From positions 1,544-65,543 of the forward strand of contig JABLXL010000005.1 of NCBI GenBank assembly GCA_013178005.1: 64,000 nt of DNA, read 5' to 3'. Below the pieces are notes generated by a model, which saw nothing but the letters and a program-made list of their open reading frames with translations, did no database searches and had not been told where the DNA came from. The DNA comes from Actinomycetota bacterium. GTDB taxonomy: Bacteria > Actinomycetota > Geothermincolia > Geothermincolales > RBG-13-55-18. Positions 10,705-54,731 of the stretch are shown here, piece after piece. How positions within the stretch are numbered: the stretch's first letter is position 1; each line of letters starts with the position of its first letter. A program made the translations under genes and the position numbers.

Positions 10705-10848
10705 ATACTATATATTGCAACGATTATCGCCGCCGCGCTTCGGGATGCGGGAACGTTCCAAGCGCCATGCCGGCGACGGCGGGATGGGAGGTTGACCGCG
10801 GGCGGGGCAGCGCCGAGAATAGATGCGGGAATGCGAAAAGGAGGCGAC

Positions 10849-29328: not shown

Positions 29329-29362
29329 TTGGCCTTAGGCCGATGGCCAGCCTTGACCCCCA
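29329..29362. repeat. REP-like repeat in inverted orientation (right boundary of the transposase unit)
   Basis: CCTTAGGCCGATGGCCAGCCTTGACCCC is the reverse complement of the 27913-28061 units. Confidence 0.8.
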
Positions 29363-29469
29363 GGCCAGTCCCCCAGGCTACCAGGCCTTAATGCATGGGG
29401 CGGTGGGAGACGGTAAAATGAGATAGCTGTTCTGGTCACGCTTCGGTTCTCGCCCGGGAGGTGTTCGAG

Positions 29470-40042: not shown

Positions 40043-40360
40043 CCCGGGACGGATTTCCGAGCTCCCGGCCATGGCGGGGAGTTGACCCCTTCGGCTTCCT
40101 CCCTCGCCCACCCCGGTCAGGTCATAGGGCAGAAACTGACAGCATGGAAGGAAAGCCATTACATCCTGCTTGGAACTGATTTCCAGCCCACTGGCTGCGG
40201 GTTTGATCGACCCTTCGGCCGTATCCGTTATCCGCCCGGGCCGGCGGGCAAGAGCTGAAAACATGGGAAGGGCGGCCCTTGTTTCCTGACTGGAACAGAT
40301 TCCCAACTCCCGGCTCCGGGCTTAATCGATCCCTCGGCCGTATCCGTCATCCGCCTGGGC
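40043..40360. repeat. right-hand set of tandem ~110-125-bp structured sub-repeats immediately downstream of nadE
   Basis: Units share ...ATCGA-CC-TCGGCCGTATCCGT-ATCCGCC-GGGCCGGGC-GGCGGGC. One unit carries the AAGAGCTGAAAACATGGGAAGGGCGGCCCTTGTTTC hairpin tail. Confidence 0.75.
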
Positions 40361-42125
40361 CGGGCCGGCGGGCGGAGATGGGGAGCCTCCAGTCGCGGCC
40401 GAAGGCGCGGGGGGTGATCTTTATCCCCACCGGGGCCTGGCGGCGCTTGTACTCGTTTGCGTCCACGCGCCGTACCACCTCCTCCACCAGCGCGCGATCA
40501 TGCCCCATGGCGACCATCTCCTCCACCGTAAGGCCGTTCTCGATGTATCCCTCGAGAACGGGATCCAGGAGCTCGTAAGGCGGCAGGGAATCGGTGTCCC
40601 TCTGGCCCTCGCGCAGCTCCGCCGACGGCTCCCTGGAGATGACCGCCTCCGGTATGATTTCCCCGCCCTCCCGCTCGTTGATATAGCCGGCAAGCCGGTA
40701 CACCTCCTTCTTCAGGAGGTCCTTGATCACCGCGAACCCCCCGGCCATGTCGCCGTACAAAGTGCAATACCCCATGGAAAGCTCGCTTTTGTTGCCGGTG
40801 GCCAGCACCAGCCAGCCCCGGCTGTTGGAGACGTTCATGAGCAGGTTGCCCCGGATGCGCGCCTGCAGGTTCTCCATGGCCAGCGATCCGCCAGGACCCT
40901 TCAATGAGGAGCCGGCGGCACCCGCGTAACCTTCCATTATCGCATCGATCTCGAAGACCTCGAGAGAAATCCCTAGGTTACGAGCCAGCGCCTCCGCGAT
41001 CTCGCGGGATAGCTCCGAGGTGAACCTGGAGGGCATGAAGACGGCGTGCACTCTCTCCGGCCCCAGCGCCATGGCGGCTAGGGCGGCGGTGAGGGCGGAG
41101 TCCACGCCTCCCGATAGCCCCAGGACCACGTCGGTGAACCCGTTCTTGCGCACGTAGTCGCGCAACCCGAGCAGCAGCGCCTGGTATATCTCCTCCTCCT
41201 CCTCCCTTTCATGTGTTTCCCCGTACTGCTGTATATTGATGTTAAGGGTCGGGCGCTCTCCCGTGGACGGACCCCGTTGTCCACCCAGATCGACGACCCG
41301 CGTTGGTTCCGGGAGGGCGCCCTTCCTTGCGTACCTGTGCAGTGGCTTGGACATCCTCTCCGCCCATATCCCGGTCAGGTCCAGGTCGCACACCAGGAGG
41401 TGCTCGCGGAAGCGCGGGGAACAAGCGAGTTTTCCCGCCCTCGGATGCACGATCATGGAGCCGCCGTCCAGCACCAGCTCGTCCTGCCCGCCCACGCAGT
41501 TCACATAGGCGACGACCGCGAGGGAGTCGGCGGCCCTGGATTCCACGAGACGCTCGCGTATCCCCTGCTTGCCCCGGTGATACGGCGACGCGGAGATGTT
41601 GACCACCACCTCCGCTCCCCCGTACGCCACCTCCCGCTCCAGCGGACCCCCGGGGTACCAGATGTCCTCGCAGACGGTGATCCCCACGCGCACCCCGGCG
41701 ATGATGGCCACCAGGCCTTCACTCCCGGGCGCGAAGTAACGGTTCTCGTCGAAGACGCCGTAGTTGGGCAGGAAGCGTTTGCGGTAGGTGGCCACCACCT
41801 CTCCGCGGTGGACGAGTGCCGCGGCGTTGAACAAGTCCTCCGCTAGCTCGGGTGTCCCCACCACCATGGGCGTGTCTCCCACCTGACAAGCGAGATCGGC
41901 CAGCGCTGTCCGGCAGTCCTCGAGGAAGTCGCGCTTGAGCAACAGGTCCTCGGGTGGATAACCGCACAGGGCGAGTTCCGGAAAGCACACCAGGTCCGCC
42001 CCCATTCCCTCCGCCTCGCGCAGCGCCTCCAGGATACGCGCGCAGTTCCCACGGAAATCTCCCACCGTGGTGTTCACCTGCGCCAGGGCGATCCTCATCC
42101 CACAGTCACCCGCTTTCGAGGTCAT
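40347..42125 (-). CDS. nadE: glutamine-dependent NAD+ synthetase NadE (N-terminal CN-hydrolase/glutaminase domain plus NAD synthetase domain)
   Basis: Nitrilase-family domain (catalytic E-K-C context ...VCFPELAL...), then the PP-loop SGGVDS of NAD synthetase. An alternative start is at 42098. Confidence 0.85.
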   Translation of the reverse strand: MTSKAGDCGMRIALAQVNTTVGDFRGNCARILEALREAEGMGADLVCFPELALCGYPPEDLLLKRDFLEDCRTALADLACQVGDTPMVVGTPELAEDLFNAAALVHRGEVVATYRKRFLPNYGVFDENRYFAPGSEGLVAIIAGVRVGITVCEDIWYPGGPLEREVAYGGAEVVVNISASPYHRGKQGIRERLVESRAADSLAVVAYVNCVGGQDELVLDGGSMIVHPRAGKLACSPRFREHLLVCDLDLTGIWAERMSKPLHRYARKGALPEPTRVVDLGGQRGPSTGERPTLNINIQQYGETHEREEEEEIYQALLLGLRDYVRKNGFTDVVLGLSGGVDSALTAALAAMALGPERVHAVFMPSRFTSELSREIAEALARNLGISLEVFEIDAIMEGYAGAAGSSLKGPGGSLAMENLQARIRGNLLMNVSNSRGWLVLATGNKSELSMGYCTLYGDMAGGFAVIKDLLKKEVYRLAGYINEREGGEIIPEAVISREPSAELREGQRDTDSLPPYELLDPVLEGYIENGLTVEEMVAMGHDRALVEEVVRRVDANEYKRRQAPVGIKITPRAFGRDWRLPISARRPGPGG

Positions 42126-42369
42126 GCCCAGGATCCCGGCTCAGACGCCCGTCAACGGTATCCGCTTCGGGACCCTCGATCCAGCCTCCGCCATACCTAT
42201 AAGACGGGGAGGTGGTTGGCCAGTTCCCATTCCGCGACTGGGCGCGGCAGCGCTCCCGGTCGCGTATTCCCGCCGTCAGCCGGCCTTGGGGGCCGGGTCT
42301 TGGCACCCCTGTTCGATGCCGGTTTGCCCGCCGGCGCCGCGCCGGCCCTTGACCCGGCCCCCGCCATCC

Positions 42370-43698
42370 TTAAAGGACGGGCAGGTAGTTGCCCAGCTCC
42401 CACTCCGTGACCTGGGCGCGGTAGCGCTCCCACTCGATCTTCTTGTTCTCGATCAGCGAATCGAACACCGCGTCGCCCAGGGTCCTGCGCAAGAGCTCGC
42501 TCTTCTCCGCCAGCTGGATGGCCTCCCAGAGGTCCTCGGGAAGCTGCCCGATGCCCAGCTCCTCGCGTTCGGCGGCGCTCATCTCGTAGACGTTGCGCTC
42601 CACGGAATCGGCGAGCTCGTATTCCTTCTCGATGCCCTCCAGCCCCGCCGCCAGCATGCAGGCGAAGGCGAGGTAGGGGTTACAGGCGGGATCCGGGGAG
42701 CGGAACTCGATGCGCGTGGCCTTCTCCTTGCCCGGCTTGTACTCCGGAACGCGGATGAGGTCGGAGCGGTTGCGCACCGCCCAGGTCAGGTACACCGGCG
42801 CCTCGTAGCCGGGGACCAGGCGCTTGTAGGAGTTCACCCACTGGTTGCACACCAGGGTTATCTCCGGGGCGTGGCGCAGCAGCCCGGCGATGAAGCGCTT
42901 GGCGGTGACGGAGAGGTGGTGCTTGTCGTCGGGGTCGTAGAAGGCGTTGCGGTCGCCCTTGAAGAGGGACATGTGGGTGTGCATGCCGCTGCCGTTCTCG
43001 CCGAAGAGGGGCTTGGGCATGAAGGTGGCGTAAACCCCGTTGAGGAGGGCGATCTCCTTCACCACCAGGCGGAAGGTCATGGCGTTGTCGGCCATGGTAA
43101 GGGCGTCGGCGTAGCGCATGTCGATCTCGTGCTGGCTGGGGCCCACCTCGTGATGGCTGTACTCCACGCCGATGCCCAGCTCCTCGAGGGCGATGACGGT
43201 GTCGCGGCGCAGGTCGCTCGCGACATCGAGCGGCGTGAGGTCGAAGTAGCCGCCACGGTCAAGTATCTCCGTGGCCTCCGGGCTCTTGAAGTAGAAGTAT
43301 TCCAGCTCCGGCCCCACGTAGAAGGTGTAGCCCATCTCCGCCGCCCGGGCCAGGTTGCGCTTGAGGATGTAGCGGGGGTCCTTCTCGTAGGGCTCGCCAC
43401 CCGGCTTGAGCACGTCGCAGAACATCCTGCCCACGGCGTTGTGCTCGCGCGGCCGCCAGGGCAGGATGGCGAAGGTGCTGGGGTCGGGCATGGCGATCAT
43501 GTCGCTCTCGTCGATGCGCGCGTAGCCCTCGATGGAGGACCCGTCGAAGCCCATCCCGTCCTCCAAGGCCTCCTCCAGTTCCCCGATGGTGATGGCGAAG
43601 CTCTTGAGGAACCCGAGGATGTCGGTGAACCACAGCCGGATGAAGCGAACGTCGTTCTCGCGCGCCGTCTTGATCACGTACTCCTTGTCCTTGCTCAT
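42370..43698 (-). CDS. glnA: glutamine synthetase type I
   Basis: GS catalytic motifs (GSSIEG, KPLFGENGSGMHTH, NPY) across 442 aa. Confidence 0.9.
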   Translation of the reverse strand: MSKDKEYVIKTARENDVRFIRLWFTDILGFLKSFAITIGELEEALEDGMGFDGSSIEGYARIDESDMIAMPDPSTFAILPWRPREHNAVGRMFCDVLKPGGEPYEKDPRYILKRNLARAAEMGYTFYVGPELEYFYFKSPEATEILDRGGYFDLTPLDVASDLRRDTVIALEELGIGVEYSHHEVGPSQHEIDMRYADALTMADNAMTFRLVVKEIALLNGVYATFMPKPLFGENGSGMHTHMSLFKGDRNAFYDPDDKHHLSVTAKRFIAGLLRHAPEITLVCNQWVNSYKRLVPGYEAPVYLTWAVRNRSDLIRVPEYKPGKEKATRIEFRSPDPACNPYLAFACMLAAGLEGIEKEYELADSVERNVYEMSAAEREELGIGQLPEDLWEAIQLAEKSELLRRTLGDAVFDSLIENKKIEWERYRAQVTEWELGNYLPVL

Positions 43699-43809
43699 CT
43701 TTTGCTCCTTTCTCCCGCAAACCCGTTCACGGGTTCCGTTTCCCTGACTCCTGGATAAGATTCTCCCCTACCCGTGTTTCCATCCCTTTTCCGCACTGTT
43801 AAATCCTTG

Positions 43810-44148
43810 TTAAATGGCGTTGAAGCCGGACTCGCCGGTGCGGATGCGCACGGCGTTCTCCACCTCGTAGACGAAGATCTTGCCGTCGCCGATGTTGCCG
43901 GTGCGCGCCGCCCGGGTCACCGCCGCCAGCACCTTGGGTAGGTCCTCGTCCAGCACCACCGCCTCCAGCTTGAGCTTGGGCAGGAACTCCACGCGGTACT
44001 CCGCCCCCCTCCACATGTGGGTCACGCCCTTCTGCTTGCCGTGCCCCTTGACCTCGGTGATGGTCACGCCGGGGTAGCCCAGGGCGCGCAGCTCGTTCAT
44101 CACCGGCTCCAGGCGCTCCGGCCTGATGATGGCCTCGATCTTTTTCAT
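43810..44148 (-). CDS. glnK: nitrogen regulatory protein P-II (GlnK/GlnB)
   Basis: 112-aa PII signature (MKKIEAIIRPERL...T-loop RGAEYRV...). Immediately downstream of amtB, as expected for GlnK. Confidence 0.9.
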   Translation of the reverse strand: MKKIEAIIRPERLEPVMNELRALGYPGVTITEVKGHGKQKGVTHMWRGAEYRVEFLPKLKLEAVVLDEDLPKVLAAVTRAARTGNIGDGKIFVYEVENAVRIRTGESGFNAI

Positions 44149-44154
44149 GCTCCA

Positions 44155-45711
44155 TCACCCCCTCGCCGCGGCGATGTCCCCGCCGGCGCTCGCCACCGGC
44201 TCCGGCACCGGGAGGCTGATGCGGCTATCGTCGGTGTACGCGCTGACGCCCATCTCGTGCGCGTCCAGGCCGTCCACCTCCTCCTGGGGCGACACCCTGA
44301 TACCCTGCCACCGGTCCTGCAGTCGGAAGAAGAGGTAGGAGAGGCCGAACACGAAGGCCACGCAGGCAATCGCGCCGATGGCCTGCGCCGCCAGCTGCCC
44401 GGCGTCCCCGAAGAAAAGCCCCCGCACGGCTCCTTCGACGCCGTTGAGGCCGGCGCCATAGGTCCCGTCGGCGAACAGGCCCAGGGAGAGGACGCCCCAC
44501 AGGCCGTTCATGCCATGTACCGCGACGGCTCCCACCGGGTCGTCGATGCCCCGCCTTTCCAGGGCGAAGACCCCCACGCAGACCAGCACGCCGGCCACCG
44601 CCCCGATGATCAGCGACGCCCAGGAGGGCACGAAGGCGCAGGGGGCGGTCACTGCCACCAGGCCCGCCAGCATGCCGTTGGCGGTCATGGACGGGTCGGG
44701 CTTGCCGCATTTCCTCCACATGAAGAACATGGCGGCCAGGCATCCCGCGCACGCGGCCAGGAGCGTGTTCACCGCCACCACCGCCAGCCGCAGGTCGTTG
44801 CCGGAAAGCGTGCTGCCGGCATTGAACCCGAACCAGCCGAAGACGAGGATTATCACCCCGATTATGGCCATGGGCACGTTGTGGCCGGGGATGGCCCGCG
44901 GCTTGCCATCTCGGTCGAAGCGGCCGATGCGCGGCCCGATGACTATGGCGCCGGCCAGGGCGCAGATGCCGCCCACGGCGTGCACCACCGACGAGCCCGC
45001 GAAATCCACGAAGCCGTGGCCGAGGCCCAGGTTGGAGCCGAGCTGGGAAAGCCAGCCGCCGCCCCATACCCAGTGCCCGAACACGGGATAGAGGACCATG
45101 GACATGAAGAAACCGTAAACGACGAACGCCTTGAACTTCCACCTCTCGGCCATGGCCCCGGTGACGATGGTTGCGGCGGTGTCCATGAAGACCACCTGGA
45201 AGAGGAAGAAGAGGAACACCCCCACGTCGTACACGCCGCTCCCCGAGAGGGCGAACCCCTTGAGGCCCAGGATGGACCAGCCGCGGGCCACCTCCAGCTT
45301 GGCGTTGAGGATCTCCGCACCGCCCAGGGTGGCGAGTGCGCCCACCCCGCCGAACATCAGGGCGTAGCCCACCAGGAAATACCCCAGGGTGCCGATGGCG
45401 AAGATGGTGAAGTTGGTCATCATCACGTGCACGGCGTTGCGCTCCTGGGTGAACCCCGTCTCCACCATGGCGAAGCCGGCCTGCATGAAGAAGACGAGGA
45501 TGGCCCCCAGGAAGACCCAGATGAAATTAAGGGCTATCTTGCCGTGGCCGACTTCCTCGGAAAGCTCCCCCGCCAGGTCCTGCGAACCGCCCGTCTGCTC
45601 TCCCGTGGCGTCGGCCCTGGCCTTCCCCCCTCCGCCCGCCAGCGCGAGGAGAAGGAAACACAGCAGCACCCCTACGACCAGCGGTCCCCAACGGCGTAGA
45701 GCGATGACCAT
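44155..45711 (-). CDS. amtB: ammonium transporter Amt, with an N-terminal signal or extension
   Basis: Amt/MEP family signatures (DFAGG, twin-His region) and 11 TM helices. Start placed at the ATG with an AAAGGAGG RBS. Confidence 0.85.
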   Translation of the reverse strand: MVIALRRWGPLVVGVLLCFLLLALAGGGGKARADATGEQTGGSQDLAGELSEEVGHGKIALNFIWVFLGAILVFFMQAGFAMVETGFTQERNAVHVMMTNFTIFAIGTLGYFLVGYALMFGGVGALATLGGAEILNAKLEVARGWSILGLKGFALSGSGVYDVGVFLFFLFQVVFMDTAATIVTGAMAERWKFKAFVVYGFFMSMVLYPVFGHWVWGGGWLSQLGSNLGLGHGFVDFAGSSVVHAVGGICALAGAIVIGPRIGRFDRDGKPRAIPGHNVPMAIIGVIILVFGWFGFNAGSTLSGNDLRLAVVAVNTLLAACAGCLAAMFFMWRKCGKPDPSMTANGMLAGLVAVTAPCAFVPSWASLIIGAVAGVLVCVGVFALERRGIDDPVGAVAVHGMNGLWGVLSLGLFADGTYGAGLNGVEGAVRGLFFGDAGQLAAQAIGAIACVAFVFGLSYLFFRLQDRWQGIRVSPQEEVDGLDAHEMGVSAYTDDSRISLPVPEPVASAGGDIAAARG

Positions 45712-45904
45712 GACCGGACCTCCTTTCTCGCTCGGGTCGTCTCCTGCCAACCAAGTCTAAGGGCCGCTTTTTTCGGGGGTTTTTCACGTGCGTTAAGGTT
45801 TCGTGATCTTCTCGTTTCGAAAAAGTTAAACGCGGCGCCATCTGCTCACGAGCAACAGGCGGCCGGGGGTTTTTCCCCGCGGAGAGGCGGGCGCCAGTGT
45901 GATG

Positions 45905-46012
45905 AACCCGTTACGGGGTAGGCTTCAACGCGCAAAGACCCGTCGTCCCGTTACCGCGCCCTGGACATCGCACGAATCCGTTAACGGGGCCGGCGCCAAC
46001 GCGCAAAACGCC
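45905..46012. promoter_or_regulatory. three CCGTTA(A)C boxes, two of them within ~30-bp direct repeats (CCGTTACGGGGTAGGCTTCAACGCGCAAAG / CCGTTAACGGGGCCGGCGCCAACGCGCAAAAC) upstream of amtB
   Basis: Repeats seen directly, 200-300 bp upstream of the amtB start. Candidate nitrogen-regulator binding sites. Confidence 0.4.
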
Positions 46013-46069
46013 TGGGGGTTTTATACCATGAGGAGGGATTGTCGCATGGGACGGGCGCAGCCTGGACTT

Positions 46070-46729
46070 TCAATCCGGGGACACATGCTCGAAGATGTAG
46101 CCCACGCCGCGCACGGTGCGGATATAGGTATGGCCCTCCCGCTCGATCTTGGCGCGTATGCGGCGCACGTGCACATCTACGGTGCGGGAGCCTCCGAAGT
46201 AATCGTATCCCCAGACCTGCTCCAGGAGCATCTCGCGGGTGAACACCTTCCCCGGCCGGGAGGCGAGGAAATGCAGGAGCTCGAATTCCTTGAAGGTGAG
46301 CTCCACCCGCCTTCCCCCCACCCTCACCTCATAACGGTCCTCGTCTATCTCCAACTCCCCGGATCCCACGAGGGCTCGCACGGTTTCATCCCCACCCACC
46401 ATGCGGCGGATCCTTGCCCTTATCTCCTCCGCCGTCCCGTTATCGGCGACGAAGTCGTCTATATCCACGGCGCCGTCGAGGGTCCTTATCTGCTCGAAGC
46501 GCAGCACGGCGACCAGCCGCGCGCCTTCCGCCAGATCTCGCCGCAAGCCGCTCAAGAAGCCACGCCACTCCGCGCCCATCCCCGCGCAATCCGCCAGCAC
46601 CACATCACCGGGTGCCGTATTCGCGCTCCCATGCGGGGGAAAAGCCTCCACCGAGAAGCTTTCCTCCAGCACGCCCCGGAAGAATTCCCCACGTTCCCGG
46701 TCACAATGAAGAAAGACCTTGCCTGCCAT
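46070..46729 (-). CDS. OmpR/PhoB-family transcriptional regulator with an atypical receiver domain (GlnR-like)
   Basis: C-terminal winged-helix trans_reg_C (LTFKEFELLHFLASRPGKVFTREMLLEQVWGYDYF...RTVDVHVRRIRAKIE). The receiver lacks the canonical DD acidic pocket. Sits between the GOGAT genes and amtB. Confidence 0.6.
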   Translation of the reverse strand: MAGKVFLHCDRERGEFFRGVLEESFSVEAFPPHGSANTAPGDVVLADCAGMGAEWRGFLSGLRRDLAEGARLVAVLRFEQIRTLDGAVDIDDFVADNGTAEEIRARIRRMVGGDETVRALVGSGELEIDEDRYEVRVGGRRVELTFKEFELLHFLASRPGKVFTREMLLEQVWGYDYFGGSRTVDVHVRRIRAKIEREGHTYIRTVRGVGYIFEHVSPD

Positions 46730-46860
46730 TTTTCACCTGGTCGCCAAACCGGTTATCGCCTCCGACATACGTTCGCTCCGCCACAAGAGTGAAAGACCGA
46801 CCCCCCATGGGGGATCGGCATCCGTGCGCCGCTTCGCCGTTCCGGGATCCGGTGGCCTCG

Positions 46861-47658
46861 TCAGTACGCGTATAGCCCACCGAAGGGGCGGTGCGACTTG
46901 GCGTACAGCTTGATGAAGCCGGAGCCGAGTATCTCGTCGGCTTTGCCCCCGAAGTAGTTCGTGTATTCCTCCACGTGGGGCCGGATCATCTCCAGGTCGG
47001 CTTCCGAGGCCCGCTCCACCGCGGCCTCCTTTCCGAGCTGATGCTCCTCCACCTCCCCGCGCAGGAAGATGAGACCCCCGTGCATGCCGGTCCCGATATG
47101 GCGCGCCGCCAGTTTTGGTTTTCCTTTCTTTCCCAGCCCCAACACCAGCACCAGCCCGCCGGCCATGTACTCCCCCAGGAAGTCCTGGGTCTCTCCTCCG
47201 ATGACCAGAACGGGGACGTGCTTGCGGTACTCCTTCATGTGAATGGCGGCGCGGTAACCCACGCCGTCGCGTATGAAGATCTTGCCTCCCCTCATGCCCA
47301 TGGCCACGATGTCTCCCGCGCGCCCGTGGACCACGATGGTGCCGCTGTTCATGGTGTTCCCCACCCCGTCCTGGGCATTGCGGTCCACGGTGATCCTGGG
47401 CCCGTCCATGAAGGCGCCGAGGTCATTCCCGGGCACGCCGTGAACGGTGATGCGCACGGGCCTGCGTATCCCCGACCCGATGTAGCGCTGGCCGAAGACG
47501 TTCTCGAGCTCTATCTCCTCCAGGCCCTCCGCGGCCGCTCCCTTGACCATGTTGTTGAGCTCGCGGTAATGGAGCGTTCCGGCGTTTATCCTCACCTTGC
47601 CGTTCTCTCGCGCGAACACGCCCGGCAACCCGGCATGGTGGTCCACCTCGATCTTCAT
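46861..47658 (-). CDS. glutamate synthase GXGXG-domain protein (stand-alone alpha-subunit C-terminal domain, archaeal-type GltB3-like)
   Basis: Repeated GxGxG beta-helix pattern (GIRRPVRITVHGVPGNDLGAF, GTIVVHGRAGD, GGKIFIRDGVG). Confidence 0.7.
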   Translation of the reverse strand: MKIEVDHHAGLPGVFARENGKVRINAGTLHYRELNNMVKGAAAEGLEEIELENVFGQRYIGSGIRRPVRITVHGVPGNDLGAFMDGPRITVDRNAQDGVGNTMNSGTIVVHGRAGDIVAMGMRGGKIFIRDGVGYRAAIHMKEYRKHVPVLVIGGETQDFLGEYMAGGLVLVLGLGKKGKPKLAARHIGTGMHGGLIFLRGEVEEHQLGKEAAVERASEADLEMIRPHVEEYTNYFGGKADEILGSGFIKLYAKSHRPFGGLYAY

Positions 47659-47913
47659 GTCCTCATCACCCTTTTTCGCTCACGCCACCTTTTTTTGTTT
47701 TCTTCTCCGCCTATCGAGAATTTCCCTTCATATCTCTATTCTATACCCCTGTCAAACCCGCGCCCCCGGAAAGCCGTGTTCCCCCATGGAGACCATGAGC
47801 GTCAGCTATACCCCCGCCGGATGTCCCGATGCGGAGTCTTTTCCTTATGGCACTAGCCTCCCTGCTGCTATCATCTCGGCGGGAACCCACCACCTGAGGC
47901 CGGGCTCCCTTCC

Positions 47914-49425
47914 TCAGGCGCCGGCGTGCTTGATGCCCAGGATGTCCAGTTCCTCCTGGGTGAGCCCCACTCCGCGCAGGCGCAGCCGGTTGCCGCGCAG
48001 GCTCTCTATGGCGTTGATGCCCATGCCTCCCAGCATCTCCATGATCTCGTGCGACCACCCGGTGAGCAGGTTCACCAGTCGCCGCGTCCCCACGTCGGGG
48101 TTTAAGCGCTTGGAGAGGTAGGGGTCCTGGGTGGCGATTCCCCAGTTGCACTTTCCGGTGTAGCATTTCTGGCAAACGTGGCATCCCATGGCCACCAGGG
48201 CGGCGGTGCCGATATAGACGGCGTCGGCGCCCAGGGCGATGGCCTTGATGACGTCGGAGGAATTGCGGATGCCTCCCGCCACCACCACGCTGGCGCGGTT
48301 GCGTATGCCCTCCTCCCGCAGCCGCGTGTCCACCGCCGCCAGCGCCAGCTCTATGGGGATGCCCACGTTGTCGCGGATCATGGTGGGCGCCGCCCCCGTG
48401 CCGCCACGGATGCCGTCCAGGGCCACGATGTCCGCTCCCGCGCGCACTATTCCCGAGGCGATGGCGGCGGAGTTGTGCACCGCGGCGATCTTCACCGACA
48501 CCGGCTTCTCCCAGTGCGTGGCCTCTTTCAGGGCGTAGATAAGCTGGGCCAGGTCCTCGATGGAGTAGATGTCATGGTGCGGCGCCGGCGAGATGGCGTC
48601 CGTCCCCTTGGGTATCATGCGCGTGCGGGATATCTCCGCGCTCACCTTCTCCCCGGGGAGGTGGCCCCCGATGCCAGGCTTCGCGCCCTGGCCTATCTTG
48701 ATCTCCAGGGCTGCGGCCACCTCCAGGTAATCGGCATGCACCCCGAAACGCCCCGAGGCCACCTGGCATATGGTGTGGTCGCCGTACTTGTAGAGGTTGC
48801 GGTGCAGGCCGCCCTCGCCGGTGTTGTAGTAGGTGCCCATCTCCGTGGCCGCCCGGGCCAGGGACTCGCAGGCGTTGTAGCTTATGGCGCCGTAGGAGAT
48901 GGCGGAGAACATGATGGGGGTCTCCAGTCGCAACTGCGGGGTGAGCCTGGTCTCCAGGGAGGGCTTGCCTCCCTTCCTCCCGACCTTCACCACGTCCGGC
49001 TTGGCCCCCAGGTAGGTGCGCAGCTCCATGGGCTCGCGCAGGGGGTCGATGGACGGGTTGGTGACCTGGCTGGCGTCCAGGACGATGCGGTCCCAGTAGA
49101 TGGGGTAACCCTTGTCGCATCCCATGCCCGTGAGCAGGACACCGCCCGTCTCCGCCTGCCTGTAGATGTTGCGCAACACCTCCCCCGTCCAGTTGGCGTT
49201 GGGCGGGATCTGGGTGGGGTTATGGCGCACCACCAGGGCGTTGGTGGGGCACAGGGTTACGCAGCGCAGACAGCCCACGCACTTGCTCTCGTCGGCGAAG
49301 ACCGCGTCCTCCTCCTCGTCGTACCAGTGCACGTCAAAGGCACACTGCCTCGCGCAGACCTCGCAGCGGATGCACCGGTAATCGTCCCTTTCCACCAGGT
49401 ATTGCGGCAAAATATAACTCTTCAA
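47914..49425 (-). CDS. glutamate synthase FMN/Fe-S domain protein with an N-terminal 2x[4Fe-4S] ferredoxin (archaeal-type large-subunit central domain)
   Basis: N-terminal CIRCEVCARQC / CVGCLRCVTLCP, then a GltS FMN-binding TIM barrel (ISAMSYGAIS-like: FSAISYGAIS; GEGG; the C-x-C Fe-S ligand region MGCHVCQKC). Confidence 0.8.
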   Translation of the reverse strand: MKSYILPQYLVERDDYRCIRCEVCARQCAFDVHWYDEEEDAVFADESKCVGCLRCVTLCPTNALVVRHNPTQIPPNANWTGEVLRNIYRQAETGGVLLTGMGCDKGYPIYWDRIVLDASQVTNPSIDPLREPMELRTYLGAKPDVVKVGRKGGKPSLETRLTPQLRLETPIMFSAISYGAISYNACESLARAATEMGTYYNTGEGGLHRNLYKYGDHTICQVASGRFGVHADYLEVAAALEIKIGQGAKPGIGGHLPGEKVSAEISRTRMIPKGTDAISPAPHHDIYSIEDLAQLIYALKEATHWEKPVSVKIAAVHNSAAIASGIVRAGADIVALDGIRGGTGAAPTMIRDNVGIPIELALAAVDTRLREEGIRNRASVVVAGGIRNSSDVIKAIALGADAVYIGTAALVAMGCHVCQKCYTGKCNWGIATQDPYLSKRLNPDVGTRRLVNLLTGWSHEIMEMLGGMGINAIESLRGNRLRLRGVGLTQEELDILGIKHAGA

Positions 49426-49447
49426 GGCATTCCTCCTCCGCCGGCCC

Positions 49448-50599
49448 TCAGGCCGGCTCCGCCCCGCTGATGCTCAATACCTTCCCCCCCGTCTCCTCTT
49501 CCCTGGCGGCGGGCTTGATCAGCTCCGCCACCACCGGAACTCCGCCGTGCGGAATCCAGGTATCCTTGAGGGTGTCGTCCACCAGGTGCATGGGAGCCTC
49601 CTCGGAGGAGATGTACATGAAGTCCCCGTTGCGGCCCGCCACCAACGGCCTCAGCCGGATGCGGTCGGTGAGCCCGATCATCTGCTCGCGGTTGGAGATG
49701 ATGATGCTGAAGGGCCCGTTGAGGAGCAGGGAGCCGTATGACTGCCGAAGGGCCACGTGCGCCTCCCTTTCACGCGCCGGCATGCGGTCTATCTCCGACC
49801 ACAGGGGCGCCGCGAGCACCCGGGACATGTCCTCTATGGACAGCCCGTGCCGCCGCACCAGGAGGTCGACCGCGTAGGCTATCACCTCCGTGTCCGTGAA
49901 CAGGGTGCACTTGTACCCGTACATCTCCAGGTGACGCATGTTGATGCCGTAGGAGGATATCTCCCCGTTGTGCACCACCGACCAGTCGAGGATGTTGAAG
50001 GGATGCGCCCCTCCCCACCAGGCCTGGGTGTTGGTAGGGAACCTGCCGTGGGCCACCCATATGTATCCCTCGTACTCGTCGAGGCGGAAGAAACGCCCCA
50101 CGTCCTCCGGGAAACCCACTCCCTTGAAAACGCCCATGTCCTTGCCGCTGGAGAAGACGAAGGCCCCGTCTATGAACACGTTGATGTGCATCACCGCGCG
50201 CACCACGAAGTCGTCCACGTCCTCGAGGTCGCAGGCGATGCTCTCGCGGGGCTGCAGGAAATAGCGCCACAGCAGCGGGGGGTCGGAGACCCCCTCGCAG
50301 CTCCGGGTGGGTATGACCTCCGCCCCCTCCAGGGAGAAGGAATCCTTGAGGTAGCCCTCCGTTTCCTCCTTGGCGGCCTGGTCGTCGTACATGAGCTGGA
50401 AACAGTACAGCTCGGCATACTGGGGGTAGATGCCGTAGGCGGCGAAACCGCCCCCCAGGCCGTTGCTGCGCTCCTTCATGTTGGCGATGGCGGTGATCAT
50501 GGGATCGCCGTTGAACTTCTCGCCGCGCAGGTTCATCATCCCGAATATGGAGCAGCCGGAGAAATCCTTGTCGTCCCTTACGCGCGCGCCCCTGAGCAC
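49448..50599 (-). CDS. class-II glutamine amidotransferase domain protein (glutamate synthase amidotransferase domain, archaeal split type)
   Basis: Ntn GATase-II fold with nucleophile-Cys context (GCSIFGMM). The Cys lies about 15 residues after the predicted GTG start, which implies a propeptide or a misplaced start. Confidence 0.7.
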   Translation of the reverse strand: MLRGARVRDDKDFSGCSIFGMMNLRGEKFNGDPMITAIANMKERSNGLGGGFAAYGIYPQYAELYCFQLMYDDQAAKEETEGYLKDSFSLEGAEVIPTRSCEGVSDPPLLWRYFLQPRESIACDLEDVDDFVVRAVMHINVFIDGAFVFSSGKDMGVFKGVGFPEDVGRFFRLDEYEGYIWVAHGRFPTNTQAWWGGAHPFNILDWSVVHNGEISSYGINMRHLEMYGYKCTLFTDTEVIAYAVDLLVRRHGLSIEDMSRVLAAPLWSEIDRMPAREREAHVALRQSYGSLLLNGPFSIIISNREQMIGLTDRIRLRPLVAGRNGDFMYISSEEAPMHLVDDTLKDTWIPHGGVPVVAELIKPAAREEETGGKVLSISGAEPA

Positions 50600-50602
50600 C
50601 TC

Positions 50603-51916
50603 TCACACCCCCTCGTCCCTCGCGGCTCCGGCCTTCATGATCCCGGCCGCCGTCTCTTTTATACGCTCCTGCCTGACCGAGCGCGGCAGGTGTATGTGGC
50701 CGAAGGCCTCCTCCAGGAGGAAGTTCTTCACCCTGCGCACGTTGGCCCGTTCCTGGATGAGGCTGGTAAGTATGCCCGCGCGCTCCACGCGCCCCGCCAC
50801 GAGCATGCCCACGATGACGTCGCCTTGCAGCACCACCTTACGGTAGTCGCCTCCGTCCACCCGGCGCGCTATCACCTCGTAGCCGTCCTCGGGAGGGTTC
50901 ACGACGCCCGCGGAGAGCACCGGGAGGCCGAAGAACTCCACCGCGTTCATGGAATTGCACCCCGGGTAGGGGACCTCCCTTCCCGCCATGTTCAGGCCGG
51001 CGTACTTCCCCTGCAGGGCGGCCACGGGCCAGAGCGCGTTGATGGCAGGTTTTCCCAGCACGATATCCATGGCGCTCACCGCATCTCCCGCCGCGAAAAC
51101 ATCCTCCAGGGAGGTGCGCTGGTGCTCGTCCACCTCGATGCCATGGGGACAGTCAAGGCCCGCTCCCTCGGCCAGTTCCGCGCGCGGCCTCACCCCCACG
51201 GCCATGACCAGGAGGTCGAAGTCTATCTCGCCGCCGTCCTCGAGGGTCGCCTTGCCCTTTCCTCCCCCCGTGGACTCCAGGGCGGCCACGCCCTGCCCGG
51301 TGACGATGTCGATGCCCGCCTCGCGGCACCTCTCCCAGACCATGCGCGAGGCCTGTTCGTCCAGCGCCTGGGGGAGTACGCGCTCCATCTTCTCCACCAC
51401 CGTCACCTCGGCGCCGCGCGCCTCCGCCGCCTCCGCCGCCTTCATGCCTATAAGCCCCGCTCCCACCACCAGGACGCGCGCGGGCTTGGCGGTCCTTGCC
51501 AGCATGCGCTTGGCGTCGTCCCAGTTCACGAAGGTTATGTAGTCCACGTCCTCCAGCCCGGGAACGGGGGGGATGAAGGGCTTGAAGCCCGTCGCCAGCA
51601 GCAGCTTGCGCCACTTCACCTTCTCGTTATCCGCCGTGGTGAGGGTCTTTTTCCCGGCGTCAACCGCCTCGACCCTGGCGCCCTTGCGGAACTCCACCCG
51701 CATGGAGCGGTAGTAGCCGGAGGGGCGGTAGTACATCCCCTTGCTCTCTATCTGGCCAGCCACCAGGTAGGAGATGAGGGGGCGGGAATAGCAACGGTAT
51801 TTCTCCTCCGCGAAGAGGACGATGGACCCCTCCCGATCCACGCTGCGAATGGCGTCACAGGCGTTTATCGCCGCCGCCGAGTTGCCCACTATCGCGTAAT
51901 CGTACCTGGCCGCCAT
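50603..51916 (-). CDS. FAD/NAD(P)-dependent pyridine-nucleotide-disulfide oxidoreductase family flavoprotein (probable electron-donating partner of the split GOGAT)
   Basis: Two Rossmann dinucleotide motifs (YAIVGNSAAA, VLVVGAGLIGMKAAEAA) and a C-terminal dimerisation domain. Confidence 0.7.
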   Translation of the reverse strand: MAARYDYAIVGNSAAAINACDAIRSVDREGSIVLFAEEKYRCYSRPLISYLVAGQIESKGMYYRPSGYYRSMRVEFRKGARVEAVDAGKKTLTTADNEKVKWRKLLLATGFKPFIPPVPGLEDVDYITFVNWDDAKRMLARTAKPARVLVVGAGLIGMKAAEAAEARGAEVTVVEKMERVLPQALDEQASRMVWERCREAGIDIVTGQGVAALESTGGGKGKATLEDGGEIDFDLLVMAVGVRPRAELAEGAGLDCPHGIEVDEHQRTSLEDVFAAGDAVSAMDIVLGKPAINALWPVAALQGKYAGLNMAGREVPYPGCNSMNAVEFFGLPVLSAGVVNPPEDGYEVIARRVDGGDYRKVVLQGDVIVGMLVAGRVERAGILTSLIQERANVRRVKNFLLEEAFGHIHLPRSVRQERIKETAAGIMKAGAARDEGV

Positions 51917-51919
51917 GTC

Positions 51920-52357
51920 CTATTCCTCCACCATCAACAGGGCCTCGTTGGGGCAGTTGGCGACGCAGGCCGGCACCTCGAGGTCCGGGCACAGGTCGCA
52001 TTTCCCCACCGCCTTCCGCTCAGCCTCGTCGCGGCGCACGGCCCCGAATGGGCACACCAGGATGCAGGTCCAGCATCCCACGCAGCGTTCCGGGTCGTTG
52101 ACCACCGCTCCCGTTTCGGGGTCCTTGGACATCGCGCCCGAGAGGCACGCGGTCACGCAAGGGGCCTCCTCGCAATGCCGGCACTGCAACGCGAAGGATA
52201 CATGCCCTTCCTCCTCCACCTCGACCCGCTTTACCGGCCTCCTCTCGCTCTTGAAGGCCTTGATGATGTTCTTGCTCCTGGAGTGCTGCACGATGCAGTG
52301 TATCTCGCACAGGCGACACCCGATGCAGTACTCCTCGCGAGGCACGATTCTGATCAA
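51920..52357 (-). CDS. 4Fe-4S dicluster ferredoxin-like protein (HycB-like, multiple clusters)
   Basis: CIGCRLCEIHC, CRHCEEAPCVTAC, CVGCWTCILVCP and CDLCPD...CVANCP motifs. Confidence 0.7.
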   Translation of the reverse strand: MIRIVPREEYCIGCRLCEIHCIVQHSRSKNIIKAFKSERRPVKRVEVEEEGHVSFALQCRHCEEAPCVTACLSGAMSKDPETGAVVNDPERCVGCWTCILVCPFGAVRRDEAERKAVGKCDLCPDLEVPACVANCPNEALLMVEE

Positions 52358-52634
52358 AACGGTACCACCTTCTCTTTCCTCGGGCCGGGGTCAGGCGCCG
52401 GCTCCTCCCGCCCTCATCACCGCCTGCGTCACCACGCTGCGGGCATGGAAACACAAACATAATAAATGCAAACGGGGTCTAATACCATAATCCTGCGCGC
52501 CCTCGGGAAACGGCTTGGCGGTTATAGAGGCCCTCGCTGGATCCCATGGCGGCTCGCCGTCCATCGCCGACCGGTCCCGGAGCCTCGGCTTACCTAAACC
52601 GTGTCGGGCACGGCGGGACACTCCCGTAACAAAC

Positions 52635-52663
52635 AATAGGCAATAGGTTACCTATTGCCTATT
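52635..52663. promoter_or_regulatory. perfect 13-3-13 inverted repeat AATAGGCAATAGG-TTA-CCTATTGCCTATT in the divergent GOGAT-operon / NrpR-like promoter region
   Basis: Seen directly. Lies about 20 bp upstream of a TTGTCA...TAATAT promoter-like element and about 70 bp upstream of the regulator's TTG start (RBS AAAGGAG). Confidence 0.6.
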
Positions 52664-52733
52664 TAATACGTTTTATTATATATTGTCAAGCAGAATGGCG
52701 GCTAATATTTACCGTTAAAGGAGTGAAAAGCCC

Positions 52734-53723
52734 TTGCTGGAACGGAAAACGCTGGCCATCCTGGAGGTGCTAAGGGAAGCGCGGGAGCCCCTGGGTGCGA
52801 GGGCCATTTCACAGGAACTCTCCCGCCGGGGAATCGAGCTCAACGAGAGGACGGTGCGCTACCACCTGCTGCACCTGGACGAGCGCGGTCTCACCCGGCT
52901 GGAGGGCAGGCGGGGCCGCTCGCTCACCGATGCCGGCTTGCGGGAGATCGAGGGCGCCATGGCCGTGGACAGGGTGGGGTTCGTGAACTCGCGCATCGAC
53001 GACCTCGCCTGCCGCTCCGATTTCAACCTCGCTGAGCGAAGGGGCCGCCTGGCGATCAACATCACCTTCCTCCCACTGGAGCAGGAGCGGCGCGCGGTCG
53101 AGGCGATGCGGGCCGCCTTCGAGGCGGGCTTCTGCCTCTCGGACCTGGCGCTGCGCGCCGGGCCGGGAGAGCGGGCGGGAGACATGGAGGTGCCCGCGGG
53201 GATGGTCGGCTGGGGCACCGTCTGCAGCGTAACTCTGAACGCGGTGTTCCTGCGCCACGGAATACCGGTGGAATCGAGTTTCGGCGGCCTTCTCGAGATC
53301 CGCGAGGGCAGGCCCGTGCGCTTCACCGAGATCATAAGCTACGCGGGCTCCAGCCTGGACCCCATCGAGATCTTCATCAAGGGCAAGATGACCAGCGTGC
53401 ACGCCGCGGCCACCGAGGGCGACGGAAGGATCTGCGCCTCCTTCCGGCTCATTCCCGCCTCCGCCTTCGATAACGCGGCAGAGGTCGCGGAAAGGATGAA
53501 GGAGGCGCGCCTCGGGGGGATGATCCTCCTGGGAAGGCCGGGACACCCACTTATGGAGGTGCCCGCCGGCAGGGACAGGGTGGGCCTGGTGGTCGCGGGA
53601 GGCCTCAACCCGCCCGCGGCAGCGGAGGAGATGGGGGTGGACACCTTCTCGCGCGCCATGGCCACCCTGGTGGACTACTCCTCGCTCTCCCCTTTCTCCT
53701 CCCTGGCTAGGCGCATCCGTTGA
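52734..53723 (+). CDS. NrpR-like nitrogen regulator (N-terminal winged HTH plus DUF128/NRD-type domain)
   Basis: N-terminal wHTH (LAILEVLREAREPLGARAISQELSRRGIELNERTVRYHLLHLDERGL) followed by a domain resembling the NRD (DUF128) of methanogen NrpR. The nitrogen-cluster context supports this. TTG start. Confidence 0.5.
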   Translation: MLERKTLAILEVLREAREPLGARAISQELSRRGIELNERTVRYHLLHLDERGLTRLEGRRGRSLTDAGLREIEGAMAVDRVGFVNSRIDDLACRSDFNLAERRGRLAINITFLPLEQERRAVEAMRAAFEAGFCLSDLALRAGPGERAGDMEVPAGMVGWGTVCSVTLNAVFLRHGIPVESSFGGLLEIREGRPVRFTEIISYAGSSLDPIEIFIKGKMTSVHAAATEGDGRICASFRLIPASAFDNAAEVAERMKEARLGGMILLGRPGHPLMEVPAGRDRVGLVVAGGLNPPAAAEEMGVDTFSRAMATLVDYSSLSPFSSLARRIR

Positions 53724-53912
53724 GGGGAAAAACGGCGGCGCCCGTTGAAGCAGCCCATGCTCTCACGCCCATCAAGGGCGAGACGTCGCGCAGCTAATAT
53801 GTGCCAAACGAGGCGCGGAAGGTCATCGCCCCGGGGCGTAGTAGATATAGTTAGCCGGCATGGAGCGGAGGAAGCGGGGATCTTGGAATTGGAGCTAGAT
53901 ACGGCGAGCGGG

Positions 53913-54731
53913 ATGTACGCCTTGAGGACGAAAGAGCTGGTGAAGGACTACCCCCGTCCGGGCGTAGGCGCGCGGTCCTTTTTCCTGCCTTACTGGGGCC
54001 AAGATAAGGTGAGGGCGCTGGACGGCGTCAGCCTGACCGTGCCCCGCGGCGAGGTATTCGGGCTTCTGGGCACCAACGGGGCCGGCAAGACCACGCTCAT
54101 GAAGATCGCCTTCGGCCTGCTGCTCCCCACCTCGGGCACCGTGGAGGTGCTGGGCGAGGACCCCGGGCGGAGAGGGGTGCGCGCGCGCATGGGCATGGTG
54201 CTTGGGGAGGAGCGGAGTTTCTACTGGCGCCTCTCCGGGCGCCGCAACTTGGAGTTCTTCGCTGCCCTGCATGATATGAGCCGCGCCGCCGCGGCGGAGC
54301 GCATCGAGGAGCTCGCATCCCTGTTGGGGATGTCCCCGTACCTCGACGCGCCTTTTTCCGACTACTCGGCGGGCATGCGCCAGAAGGCCGCCGTGGCGAG
54401 AGCCCTGTTGCACGATCCCGAGGTCCTCTTCCTGGACGAGCCCACCCGCTCCCTCTCCCCCGAGGCGGCTTACCCGCTGAGGGATTTCATCGCCCGCGAG
54501 CTGGTGGAAAAACGCGGCAAGAGCGTCGTCCTCGCCACCCAGGACATGGAGGAGGCCGAAAAGCTTTGCCGGGAGGTGGGGTTACTGCACCGCGGCCGCC
54601 TCCTCTACCTGGGCACCATGGAGGGGCTGTTGGGGGAGGGCAGGGAGCGCCTGGGGGCGGACGCCCGCCTTGGCGATGTCTTCGTGGACCTGGTGCGGGA
54701 GCACGAAGAGCCTGGGGGGGGAGGTAGATGA
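53913..54731 (+). CDS. ABC transporter ATP-binding protein (ABC-2 / DrrA-like exporter family)
   Basis: Walker A GTNGAGKTT, signature YSAGMRQK, Walker B LFLDEPT. Start placed at MYALRTKEL, but an upstream TTG is possible. Confidence 0.8.
   Translation: MYALRTKELVKDYPRPGVGARSFFLPYWGQDKVRALDGVSLTVPRGEVFGLLGTNGAGKTTLMKIAFGLLLPTSGTVEVLGEDPGRRGVRARMGMVLGEERSFYWRLSGRRNLEFFAALHDMSRAAAAERIEELASLLGMSPYLDAPFSDYSAGMRQKAAVARALLHDPEVLFLDEPTRSLSPEAAYPLRDFIARELVEKRGKSVVLATQDMEEAEKLCREVGLLHRGRLLYLGTMEGLLGEGRERLGADARLGDVFVDLVREHEEPGGGGR

Follow-up and report, generated by a model that had tools for sequence, protein, structure and literature searches.

How is control shared out in a bacterial nitrogen-assimilation locus that carries two dedicated regulators? 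The question is raised by a cluster of 11 genes at positions 40347-53723 of a 64,000-nucleotide stretch of Actinomycetota DNA (assembly GCA_013178005.1, contig JABLXL010000005.1; "the window" below means this whole stretch), in which genes for glutamine synthetase (GS; glnA), ammonium uptake (amtB-glnK) and a glutamate synthase (GOGAT) are accompanied by an NrpR homologue and an OmpR-type regulator. The reading that we favor, with a probability of roughly 0.7, is that of a two-regulator locus in which NrpR would repress the GOGAT genes, the OmpR-type protein, by its sequence a GlnR orthologue, would activate amtB-glnK and glnA, and the GOGAT would consist of five proteins.

Open reading frame (ORF) listing, translation and scans with Pfam and NCBIfam models confirmed all 11 genes, together with the coordinates and functions that an earlier note on this DNA had given them. 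Ten are co-directional and occupy ~12.0 kb of the minus strand (52357 to 40347), a run whose length the earlier note had given correctly without stating its strand, and nrpR lies divergently on the plus strand at the upstream end (52734-53723). The first gene of the GOGAT operon encodes a 145-amino-acid ferredoxin with four [4Fe-4S] clusters (51920-52357; Fer4_11, 68 bits) and is followed by the gene for a flavin adenine dinucleotide (FAD)/NAD(P)H flavoprotein of the ferredoxin/rubredoxin-reductase type (50603-51916; Pyr_redox_2 and Rubredoxin_C in Pfam). The three GOGAT pieces come next: a class II N-terminal-nucleophile (Ntn) amidotransferase (49448-50599; GATase_2), a flavin mononucleotide (FMN)/synthase piece with an N-terminal 2x[4Fe-4S] ferredoxin domain (47914-49425; PF01645, 481 bits, plus Fer4) and a stand-alone GXGXG protein corresponding to the GOGAT C terminus (46861-47658; PF01493, 109 bits). 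Beyond them lie the glnR orthologue, of the OmpR/PhoB type (46070-46729; Trans_reg_C, with GlnR_1st below threshold), the ammonium transporter gene amtB (44155-45711; PF00909, 388 bits; TIGR00836, 399 bits), glnK for a PII signal protein with Tyr51 in the T-loop of its translation (43810-44148; PF00543, 106 bits), glnA for a type I GS of 442 amino acids (42370-43698; TIGR00653, 535 bits; Gln-synt_C, 434 bits) and nadE for a glutamine-dependent NAD+ synthetase with a nitrilase-like CN_hydrolase and an NAD_synthase domain (40347-42125; NF010588, 691 bits). The amtB start codon is taken as the ATG at 45711, in agreement with the 518-amino-acid gene call; a longer ORF from a TTG at 45750 is probably an over-extension. 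An Rfam scan of the whole window at gathering thresholds returned only a tRNA; the cluster itself gave no match to a glutamine riboswitch or to any other known RNA.

For comparison, orthologous loci were recovered by exact-protein look-ups on the relatives of the OmpR-type regulator, which are labeled Actinomycetota, Candidatus Solincola and Candidatus Geothermincolales; its exact sequence was found in the metagenome-assembled genome GCA_020725935.1. Numbers beginning with L are our labels for the compared loci and contigs. The whole gene order (nrpR divergent from the genes for the ferredoxin, flavoprotein, amidotransferase, FMN piece, GXGXG protein and regulator, then amtB, glnK, glnA and nadE) recurs in five other genomes, even though their regulator is only 55-65% identical to that of the window, and is thus no product of chance; the loci with the full cluster are L085-L089, L091 and L093. 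The upstream half, its order unchanged, is present in a sixth relative on contig L096, which was reached through its NrpR. Variants among the relatives are minor and comprise a toxin-antitoxin insertion, a second amtB-glnK pair and the loss of amtB-glnK.

NrpR and its candidate operators

The divergent gene encodes a 329-amino-acid protein with a winged-helix domain (HTH_12, PF08461, 66 bits) and a single NrpR regulatory domain (NRD; NRD1_2, PF01995, 253 bits). It matches the NRD of MJ0159 in the Protein Data Bank (PDB; 3NEK, E = 1.4e-20) over residues 80-322, including the motif T(V/I)C(S/A)VTL, the Cys of which is invariant in 18 bacterial NrpR homologues, so that its earlier description as NrpR-like is upheld by both architecture and homology. 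Methanogen NrpR proteins (Methanococcus maripaludis NrpR, Methanosarcina NrpRI) likewise combine a winged helix with NRDs homologous to that of MJ0159; M. maripaludis NrpR has two NRDs, whereas the window protein has one, as do the NrpRI-type proteins so named by the Joint Genome Institute (JGI).

The GOGAT operon is preceded by a sigma-70-type promoter on the minus strand at 52661-52689, TTGACA (52689-52684) and TTAAAT (52666-52661) separated by 17 nt, which is conserved in seven orthologous loci. Beginning 1 nt past the -10 element is a 21-bp perfect palindrome, unique in the window, that we call O1 and regard as a candidate NrpR operator (52639-52659, minus strand). It can be read as three heptads, GGCAATA / GGTAACC / TATTGCC, or as two overlapping 14-mers of the form GGnAA-N4-TTnCC (GGCAATAGGTTACC / GGTAACCTATTGCC). 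The three heptads are conserved in the orthologous loci, and their spacing from the -35 element is exact in five of the seven and one nucleotide off in the other two. A second, weaker candidate site, O2 (GGCTAATATTTACC; 52700-52713, plus strand), lies downstream of the putative nrpR promoter and 21-34 nt ahead of the start codon; at the orthologous position the motif is perfect in L093 (GGCAAATTATTGCC) and L089 (GGTAAATTTTTTCC) and carries one or two mismatches elsewhere.

The same arrangement is found well outside these relatives. In the Chloroflexi genome L094, the nrpR promoter reads TTGACA-17-TATAAT followed by GGCAAACGGTTGCC, and the ferredoxin promoter reads TTGACA-17-TACAAT followed by GGCAAACGGTTACC. 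A metagenome scan with the NrpR alignment yielded 80 further loci and a set of 81 nrpR upstream regions (66 after dereplication). GGnA-N6-TnCC is present in 48 of the 81, and the stricter GGnAA-N4-TTnCC in 33 of the 66, whereas among random 175-nt segments drawn from these loci the frequency is 2.3%. The distance from the T of TTGACA to the start of the motif is exactly 30 nt in 21 of these 33, as it is for O1 in the window. The dominant form of the nrpR promoter is cTTGACA-N17-TATTGT-GGAAAACGGTTTCC-tattacc, in which GGAAAACGGTTTCC is an instance of the archaeal consensus and tattacc, at the end, reproduces the last of the three actinobacterial heptads. We assign GGnAA-N4-TTnCC to NrpR because it accompanies nrpR from phylum to phylum, even in genomes that lack GlnR.

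The operator consensus established for NrpR of M. maripaludis is GGAAN6TTCC, and methanogen operators are GG-A-N6-T-CC palindromes located just downstream of the core promoters of nitrogen-assimilation genes (PMC2723118). O1 is a variant of this form, and the exact consensus is present in many of the homologous bacterial loci. The bacterial case differs in its host, in having sigma-70-type promoters instead of a TATA box and, in the lineage of the window, in having GGCAA/TTACC half-sites. It also differs in its predicted target, which is the GOGAT operon (and probably nrpR itself) rather than nif, glnA and glnK-amtB; glnA and amtB-glnK carry GlnR boxes in the window instead. The overlap of the two 14-mers in O1 has a possible counterpart in the M. 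maripaludis glnK1 promoter, which reportedly contains overlapping NrpR operators. The position of O1 predicts that the GOGAT operon would be repressed through promoter occlusion, and by analogy with the archaeal proteins the inducer is likely to be 2-oxoglutarate.

Over the whole window such motifs, as bare patterns, occur about as often as expected. The exact archaeal operator, GGAANNNNNNTTCC, has a single match, at the chance rate, which falls in coding sequence at 29757, and the relaxed GGYA-N6-TRCC has six matches versus four expected. The 29757 match lies in a 2-kb stretch (28001-30000) of low guanine-plus-cytosine (GC) content, 0.53 versus about 0.65. A separate arrangement was seen in L128 (3417-6652) and L130 (9010-12245), where three nrpR paralogues in a row (+, -, +) stand directly downstream of amtB-PII-glnA and one intergenic region contains two sites of the GGnAA-N4-TTnCC type, GGCAACCTTTTACC and GGTATAACCATACC.

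A perfect palindrome next to a promoter could also be a hairpin in RNA or DNA, either a leader attenuator or a terminator for the divergent units, and the terminator scan does flag O1 as 13 pairs followed by GTTTGTT, with an RNA fold of -18.2 kcal/mol (z = -5.05). Its conservation, however, tracks half-sites and not base pairs: the stem is broken in L087 (third heptad GTTTACC) and in L096 (AGCAATA / GGTTACT / GATTACT), both of which keep TTnCC-like elements, and no compensatory changes were seen in the aligned orthologues. Moreover, a transcript beginning ~7 nt past the -10 element would miss most of the left arm, given that only 1 nt separates that element from the palindrome; the stem is AT rich, with only 5 of 13 pairs being GC; and dozens of unrelated nrpR promoters without an extended palindrome have the same motif family at an equal offset. 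On the conservation pattern and the position relative to the promoter we rejected the terminator or hairpin, which we consider very unlikely, in favor of O1 as an operator.

The GlnR orthologue and its boxes

The OmpR-type regulator, which had been noted as GlnR-like, is a GlnR orthologue as judged from its structural matches, its identity to Streptomyces GlnR and the boxes described below. Its top three PDB matches, 8HIG, 8HIH and 8HML, are all GlnR entries, 8HIH being the transcription-activation complex of Mycobacterium tuberculosis GlnR and 8HML the DNA-binding domain of Saccharopolyspora GlnR (PMC10235972). Streptomyces matches are 41-43% identical over residues 26-219, and the best among the matches listed is GlnR; one Streptomyces GlnR, with 149.6 bits on the Pfam model of the GlnR N-terminal domain, is 42% identical to the window regulator over 200 amino acids, N-terminal domain included. 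The C-terminal winged helix scores 102 bits on PF00486. In the receiver-like domain Asp47 is invariant, and the acidic pair and conserved Lys of phospho-accepting receivers are missing. Neither the window nor any of the six full loci has a HisKA/HATPase gene within 10 kb of the regulator, which makes it an orphan. When the genome contigs were searched with a GlnR alignment, the matches were mostly OmpR-family paralogues, with no close orthologues among those listed.

These properties resemble those of GlnR in Streptomyces, Mycobacterium and Amycolatopsis, which is an orphan OmpR/PhoB-type protein with an atypical receiver and a conserved Asp and which acts at gTnAc-n6-GaAAc boxes, in arrays of four to six half-sites, upstream of amtB and glnA (PMC10235972, PMC5826061). 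The window protein differs in being ~50 residues shorter than Streptomyces GlnR (219 versus 274 amino acids), with a diverged N-terminal domain, and in being encoded inside the assimilation cluster, right after the GOGAT genes, as the second nitrogen regulator of the locus.

Phylogenetic footprinting of intergenic regions revealed conserved arrays of TTAAC, GTAAC, GAAAC and GAAAA upstream of amtB and glnA. The amtB promoter (45754-45829, minus strand) has six GlnR half-sites on an 11-bp lattice, TTAAC, GAAAC, ATCAC, TTAAC, GAAAA and GAAAA, starting at 45829, 45818, 45807, 45796, 45785 and 45774 and followed after 10 nt by the -10 element TAGACT (45759-45754). The glnA promoter (43760-43813, minus strand) has four on the same lattice, TTAAC, TTAAC, GAAAA and GAAAC, starting at 43813, 43802, 43791 and 43780, and again 10 nt separate the array from the -10 element, here GAGAAT (43765-43760). 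The half-sites conform to the known GlnR box grammar, gTnAc-n6-GaAAc with its a-site and b-site (PMC10235972), and the amtB promoter of Streptomyces coelicolor has three such boxes (PMC5826061). A pattern of three half-sites has only two matches in the 64 kb, at the amtB and glnA promoters, versus 0.09 expected, and 13 of the 14 GlnR-box matches in five orthologous loci lie upstream of amtB or glnA; the amtB array and its -10 element both recur there. Since the gap to the -10 element is an identical 10 nt in the two window promoters, the last half-site lies over the -35 position, a geometry that fits activation by an array of GlnR in contact with RNA polymerase, as in the cryo-electron microscopy structure.

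The spacer between glnR and amtB holds further repeats. A direct repeat of ~30 nt, TTTGCGCGTTG-N7-CCCCGT(T)AACGG, is present in two copies ~70 nt apart (45902-46011, minus strand), with a third GGTAACGG between them. We considered these GTAACGG-type repeats (45900-46010) and the two ~30-nt copies as GlnR boxes and rejected them, as they are not conserved in the orthologous loci; the boxes that are conserved (45754-45829) lie downstream of them.

The split glutamate synthase and its electron input

That the GOGAT is divided over three proteins, as had been proposed, agrees with the presence of a class II amidotransferase, an FMN synthase domain and a GXGXG beta-helix in the three products. For the FMN piece, the alignment with Azospirillum GltB covers GltB residues 855-1182 (E = 9e-66), cluster cysteines included, and in translation its cluster motif GCHVCQKCYTGKC has the spacing C-x2-C-x2-C-x4-C, that is, C-x5-C-x4-C plus one extra Cys. 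The amidotransferase has a propeptide ending in DDKDFSG ahead of an invariant catalytic Cys16, and this Cys and the motifs HGRFPTNT and VHNGEI are kept in all eight aligned orthologues, as expected of an Ntn amidotransferase. The PDB matches of the GXGXG protein are FwdC proteins and residues 1284-1437 of ferredoxin-dependent GOGAT.

It might nevertheless be argued that the three proteins form some other amidotransferase/FMN oxidoreductase, related for example to subunit C of formylmethanofuran dehydrogenase or to unrelated FMN enzymes, given that the GXGXG protein scores higher against FwdC models than against GltB and that the amidotransferase matches the GltB amidotransferase domains in the PDB only weakly. 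This is extremely unlikely. The FMN piece is unambiguous by both its PF01645 score and its GltB alignment, the amidotransferase retains the Ntn cysteine with HGRFPTNT and HNGEI, the three genes are always adjacent and always amid glnA, amtB, glnK and nitrogen regulators, and deletion of the homologous cluster in Clostridium thermocellum led to a 160-fold increase in glutamate dehydrogenase (GDH) activity under ammonium limitation (PMC9888227). As no grouping with unrelated FMN enzymes was found, which the earlier note had named as the outcome that would speak against its assignment, we regard the three proteins as glutamate synthase parts.

Split GOGATs were already known in bacteria, for example in that organism (Clo1313_2032-2036; PMC9888227, PMC4676874). 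The C. thermocellum cluster resembles the window locus in having a separate amidotransferase, an FMN/Fe-S protein and further small subunits, a 4Fe-4S ferredoxin gene within the cluster and a type I glnA alongside (PMC4676874, PMC9888227), the subunits being likened at the level of the cluster; it differs in that its regulation has been ascribed to an ANTAR antiterminator and not to NrpR or GlnR. With the canonical NADPH-dependent GOGAT, GltB/GltD, the window enzyme shares the three catalytic domains and the cluster motif of the synthase domain, but it has them on three polypeptides, lacks a separate central domain and carries the extra 2x[4Fe-4S] domain. Two side observations concern the GOGAT genes. 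The FMN and GXGXG genes are 255 nt apart, and the interval contains a conserved element, GGGTTTGACAGGGGTATAGAATAGAG (47731-47757, minus strand), shared only with L087 (about 9030-9060), which could be an internal promoter or another signal. In L094, a 529-amino-acid protein encoded between nrpR and the ferredoxin gene (9131-10720, plus strand) has only a partial Glu_synthase domain (62 bits) and is possibly a GOGAT-related paralogue.

No GltD-type small subunit (FAD, NADPH, 2x[4Fe-4S]) is encoded within the cluster, and the ferredoxin and flavoprotein genes are located where GltD would be, as the gene order had indicated at the outset. In translation the ferredoxin has 16 Cys in four CxxCxxCxxxC-type groups. 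Its PDB matches are the HycB4/HycB3 polyferredoxin subunits of hydrogen-dependent CO2 reductase (7QV7) and AorA (8C0Z_C), and the flavoprotein has its best match in 8C0Z_E (E = 1.6e-55), which is the FAD/NAD subunit of an aldehyde oxidoreductase. By NCBIfam the pair is related, below the equivalog cut-offs, to PadI/PadH of the NADH-dependent phenylglyoxylate dehydrogenase, with the flavoprotein scoring 308 bits against a PadH cut-off of 475 bits. The AorA/AorC arm of the tungsten aldehyde oxidoreductase (8C0Z) and PadH/PadI likewise combine a four-cluster ferredoxin with a Pyr_redox_2/Rubredoxin_C FAD/NAD(H) subunit, but the window pair is joined to a GOGAT core instead of a tungsten or 2-oxoacid enzyme and, because of its subequivalog scores, is regarded as the same kind of module and not as an orthologue. 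In all actinobacterial loci compared, the pair stands at the head of the operon, with gaps in the window of 2 nt (ferredoxin-flavoprotein) and 3 nt (flavoprotein-amidotransferase), and it also precedes the three GOGAT pieces in L094 and in metagenomic contigs L157 and L166. From this similarity and arrangement, the pair would be an NAD(P)H-coupling arm that takes the place of GltD.

Alternatively, the GOGAT could draw its electrons from free reduced ferredoxin, with the pair serving as a co-regulated NAD(P)H:ferredoxin oxidoreductase or in some other redox role. NADH- or NADPH-dependent activity of the C. thermocellum enzyme has never been detected, and its deletion phenotype fits a ferredoxin-linked enzyme (PMC9888227); the FMN subunit carries its own 2x[4Fe-4S] entry domain; and in other lineages an HdrB/C-like protein occupies the position of the pair. 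On the other side stand the constant presence of the pair at the head of the operon in the actinobacterial and Chloroflexi loci, separated by so few nucleotides, and the fact that its closest solved relatives act jointly as the NAD-coupling arm of 8C0Z. We therefore consider the free-ferredoxin alternative rather unlikely, although a good deal less so than the other alternatives weighed in this work, and prefer the NAD(P)H-coupling arm. The HdrB/C-like replacement was seen upstream of the GOGAT amidotransferase gene in L148 (5722-7443, minus strand) and L155 (3445-4977, minus strand), as a protein of 510-573 amino acids with HdrB-like CCG and HdrC-like CxxCxxC motifs, and it suggests that electron-input modules may be interchangeable on a split GOGAT core.

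Several observations weigh against the reading of the locus as a whole. A terminator-like hairpin stands between the GXGXG gene and glnR (46791-46818, minus strand; -20.1 kcal/mol, z = -2.6), with a hairpin and T-run at the equivalent position in L087 and L093, which bears on the transcription of glnR; upstream of nadE, footprinting of the intergenic regions across the orthologous loci revealed no shared motif. The window regulator scores 16.6 bits on the GlnR N-terminal model PF21695, against a cut-off of 27 bits, and several of its orthologues carry that domain. O1 reads GGCA...TACC and not GGAA...TTCC, and its bare pattern is not enriched in the window (1 match versus 0.87 expected), so that its weight comes from position and conservation. 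The electron donor may be reduced ferredoxin instead of NAD(P)H, in view of the unmeasurable NAD(P)H-GOGAT activity in C. thermocellum, for which ferredoxin is favored (PMC9888227), and the replacement of the pair by an HdrB/C-like protein indicates that electron input is variable. Finally, what was observed are the gene identities, catalytic motifs, conserved synteny and the cis-elements with their positions; every claim about binding, the effector, the direction of regulation, the electron donor and the limits of the operons is drawn from sequence comparison.

Conservation of the locus and division of control

The earlier note had described the locus as an unusual mosaic of bacterial and archaeal parts and had thought the combination of two regulators with a split GOGAT unusual. 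This overstates the case and is only partly right. NrpR homologues with the same architecture of a helix-turn-helix domain and a single NRD are abundant in Actinomycetota, Chloroflexi/Dehalococcoidia and Armatimonadota, and in an actinobacterium a GlnR is to be expected. Among the 80 metagenomic loci, nrpR often stands beside nadE (divergent), glnA, amtB-PII or the split GOGAT genes, and sometimes beside the gene for a GlnR-like regulator; NrpR, a GlnR-like protein and a split GOGAT recur together in L121, L139, L143, L148 and L169. The gene order in L169, a contig with 56% GC, is FMN, GXGXG, nrpR, GlnR-like gene, amtB, PII, glnA, nadE and a second nrpR, and the amtB promoter that follows its GlnR-like gene (3590-3640) has TTAAC / GTAAT / GTAAC spaced on an 11-bp lattice and then, after a gap of 10 nt, TAGACT. 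As this is the geometry of the window promoter, GlnR-type control beside NrpR may extend past the Geothermincolia-like clade.

A mosaic of recent horizontal origin, in which nrpR and GOGAT genes from archaea were added to a bacterial glnR-amtB-glnK-glnA cluster, would be in keeping with the description of NrpR as euryarchaeal, with the attribution to lateral transfer, in 2007, of the homologues in Dehalococcoides (PMC1852104), and with the usual designation of split GOGAT as archaeal type. We nevertheless judge it quite unlikely. The GC content of the cluster is uniform (0.63-0.67) and like that of its surroundings, the arrangement is kept in relatives whose GlnR identity falls to 55%, the closest NrpR homologues are all bacterial (50-97% identity), and the genes are under bacterial sigma-70-type promoters; a transfer, if there was one, would be ancient and would not be peculiar to this locus. 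In L094, too, the ferredoxin, flavoprotein and three GOGAT genes adjoin nrpR. Thus, because the arrangement recurs in divergent relatives and the GC content matches, the locus is a conserved trait of a deep-branching actinobacterial lineage, with no sign of a one-off assembly.

Some features at the margins of the cluster deserve mention. Between nadE and a Band_7 gene, which are neighbors in the relatives, lie a HepT-like toxin gene (38592-38942, minus strand) and its probable partner ORF (38935-39231), in a patch of low GC content (0.55; 38-40 kb). An inserted HEPN/nucleotidyltransferase pair separates glnR from amtB in L089 (10726-11428), and toxin-antitoxin modules appear to insert at differing points of the cluster. 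A 52-nt direct repeat with 87% identity is found at 40193-40244 and 40312-40363; since the second copy holds the 3' end of nadE and its stop codon, the first, 119 nt downstream, resembles a relic left by duplication of the end of nadE. On the other side, 21 nt past nrpR on the plus strand, begin the genes for an ATP-binding cassette (ABC) ATPase (53745-54731), an ABC-2 permease (54728-55519) and, further on, an acetoacetate-decarboxylase-like protein (56218-57018). These genes also adjoin nrpR in L085, L087, L091 and L093, and nrpR may therefore head an operon with the transporter.

Taken together, these results suggest a core nitrogen-assimilation locus, in a Geothermincolia-like actinobacterium, composed of several transcription units under two regulators. 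The TTGACA-17-TTAAAT promoter would drive the ferredoxin, flavoprotein, amidotransferase, FMN and GXGXG genes, and NrpR would probably bind O1 and block initiation there when 2-oxoglutarate is low; nitrogen limitation, signaled by a rise in 2-oxoglutarate, would free the operator of NrpR and derepress GOGAT, with O2 as a second, weaker site before nrpR itself. amtB-glnK and glnA would have their own promoters, each with an array of GlnR half-sites ending 10 nt before the -10 element, and the GlnR orthologue would probably bind these arrays head to tail and recruit RNA polymerase, as in other actinobacteria. In the enzyme, electrons would pass from NAD(P)H to the FAD of the flavoprotein, through the four [4Fe-4S] clusters of the ferredoxin and the two at the N terminus of the FMN subunit, and then via the 3Fe/4Fe cluster and FMN to 2-iminoglutarate, with ammonia supplied by the separate Ntn amidotransferase.

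To our knowledge, NrpR has been studied only in methanogens. The literature that we searched contains no description of the function or operators of a bacterial NrpR, and no locus in which NrpR- and GlnR-type cis-elements partition the GS/GOGAT genes; bacterial NrpR homologues appear in it solely as a presumed lateral transfer into Dehalococcoides. The parts of the window locus are known families; what is new is their arrangement and the regulatory partition. We advance only tentatively, with slightly less than even confidence, the broader proposal that NrpR repression, relieved by 2-oxoglutarate and following the methanogen operator grammar (GGnAA-N4-TTnCC, frequently with a second site overlapping it) directly after the -10 element of sigma-70-type promoters, is widespread in bacteria and, in the actinobacterial lineage of the window, runs in parallel with GlnR and serves an uncharacterized five-subunit, polyferredoxin-wired NAD(P)H-GOGAT.

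The question of the donor to this conserved five-gene GOGAT has practical relevance in C. thermocellum, where the homologous enzyme affects redox balance. For bacterial NrpR proteins, the comparative data provide a concrete candidate operator, whose grammar would be common to both domains of life despite their differing transcription machineries. If the model is correct, control would have two inputs, with GOGAT responding through NrpR to a carbon-skeleton signal and ammonium uptake and GS responding through GlnR, and the locus would offer a natural example of a GS/GOGAT cycle divided between two nitrogen regulators that are not related to each other, a repressor and an activator.

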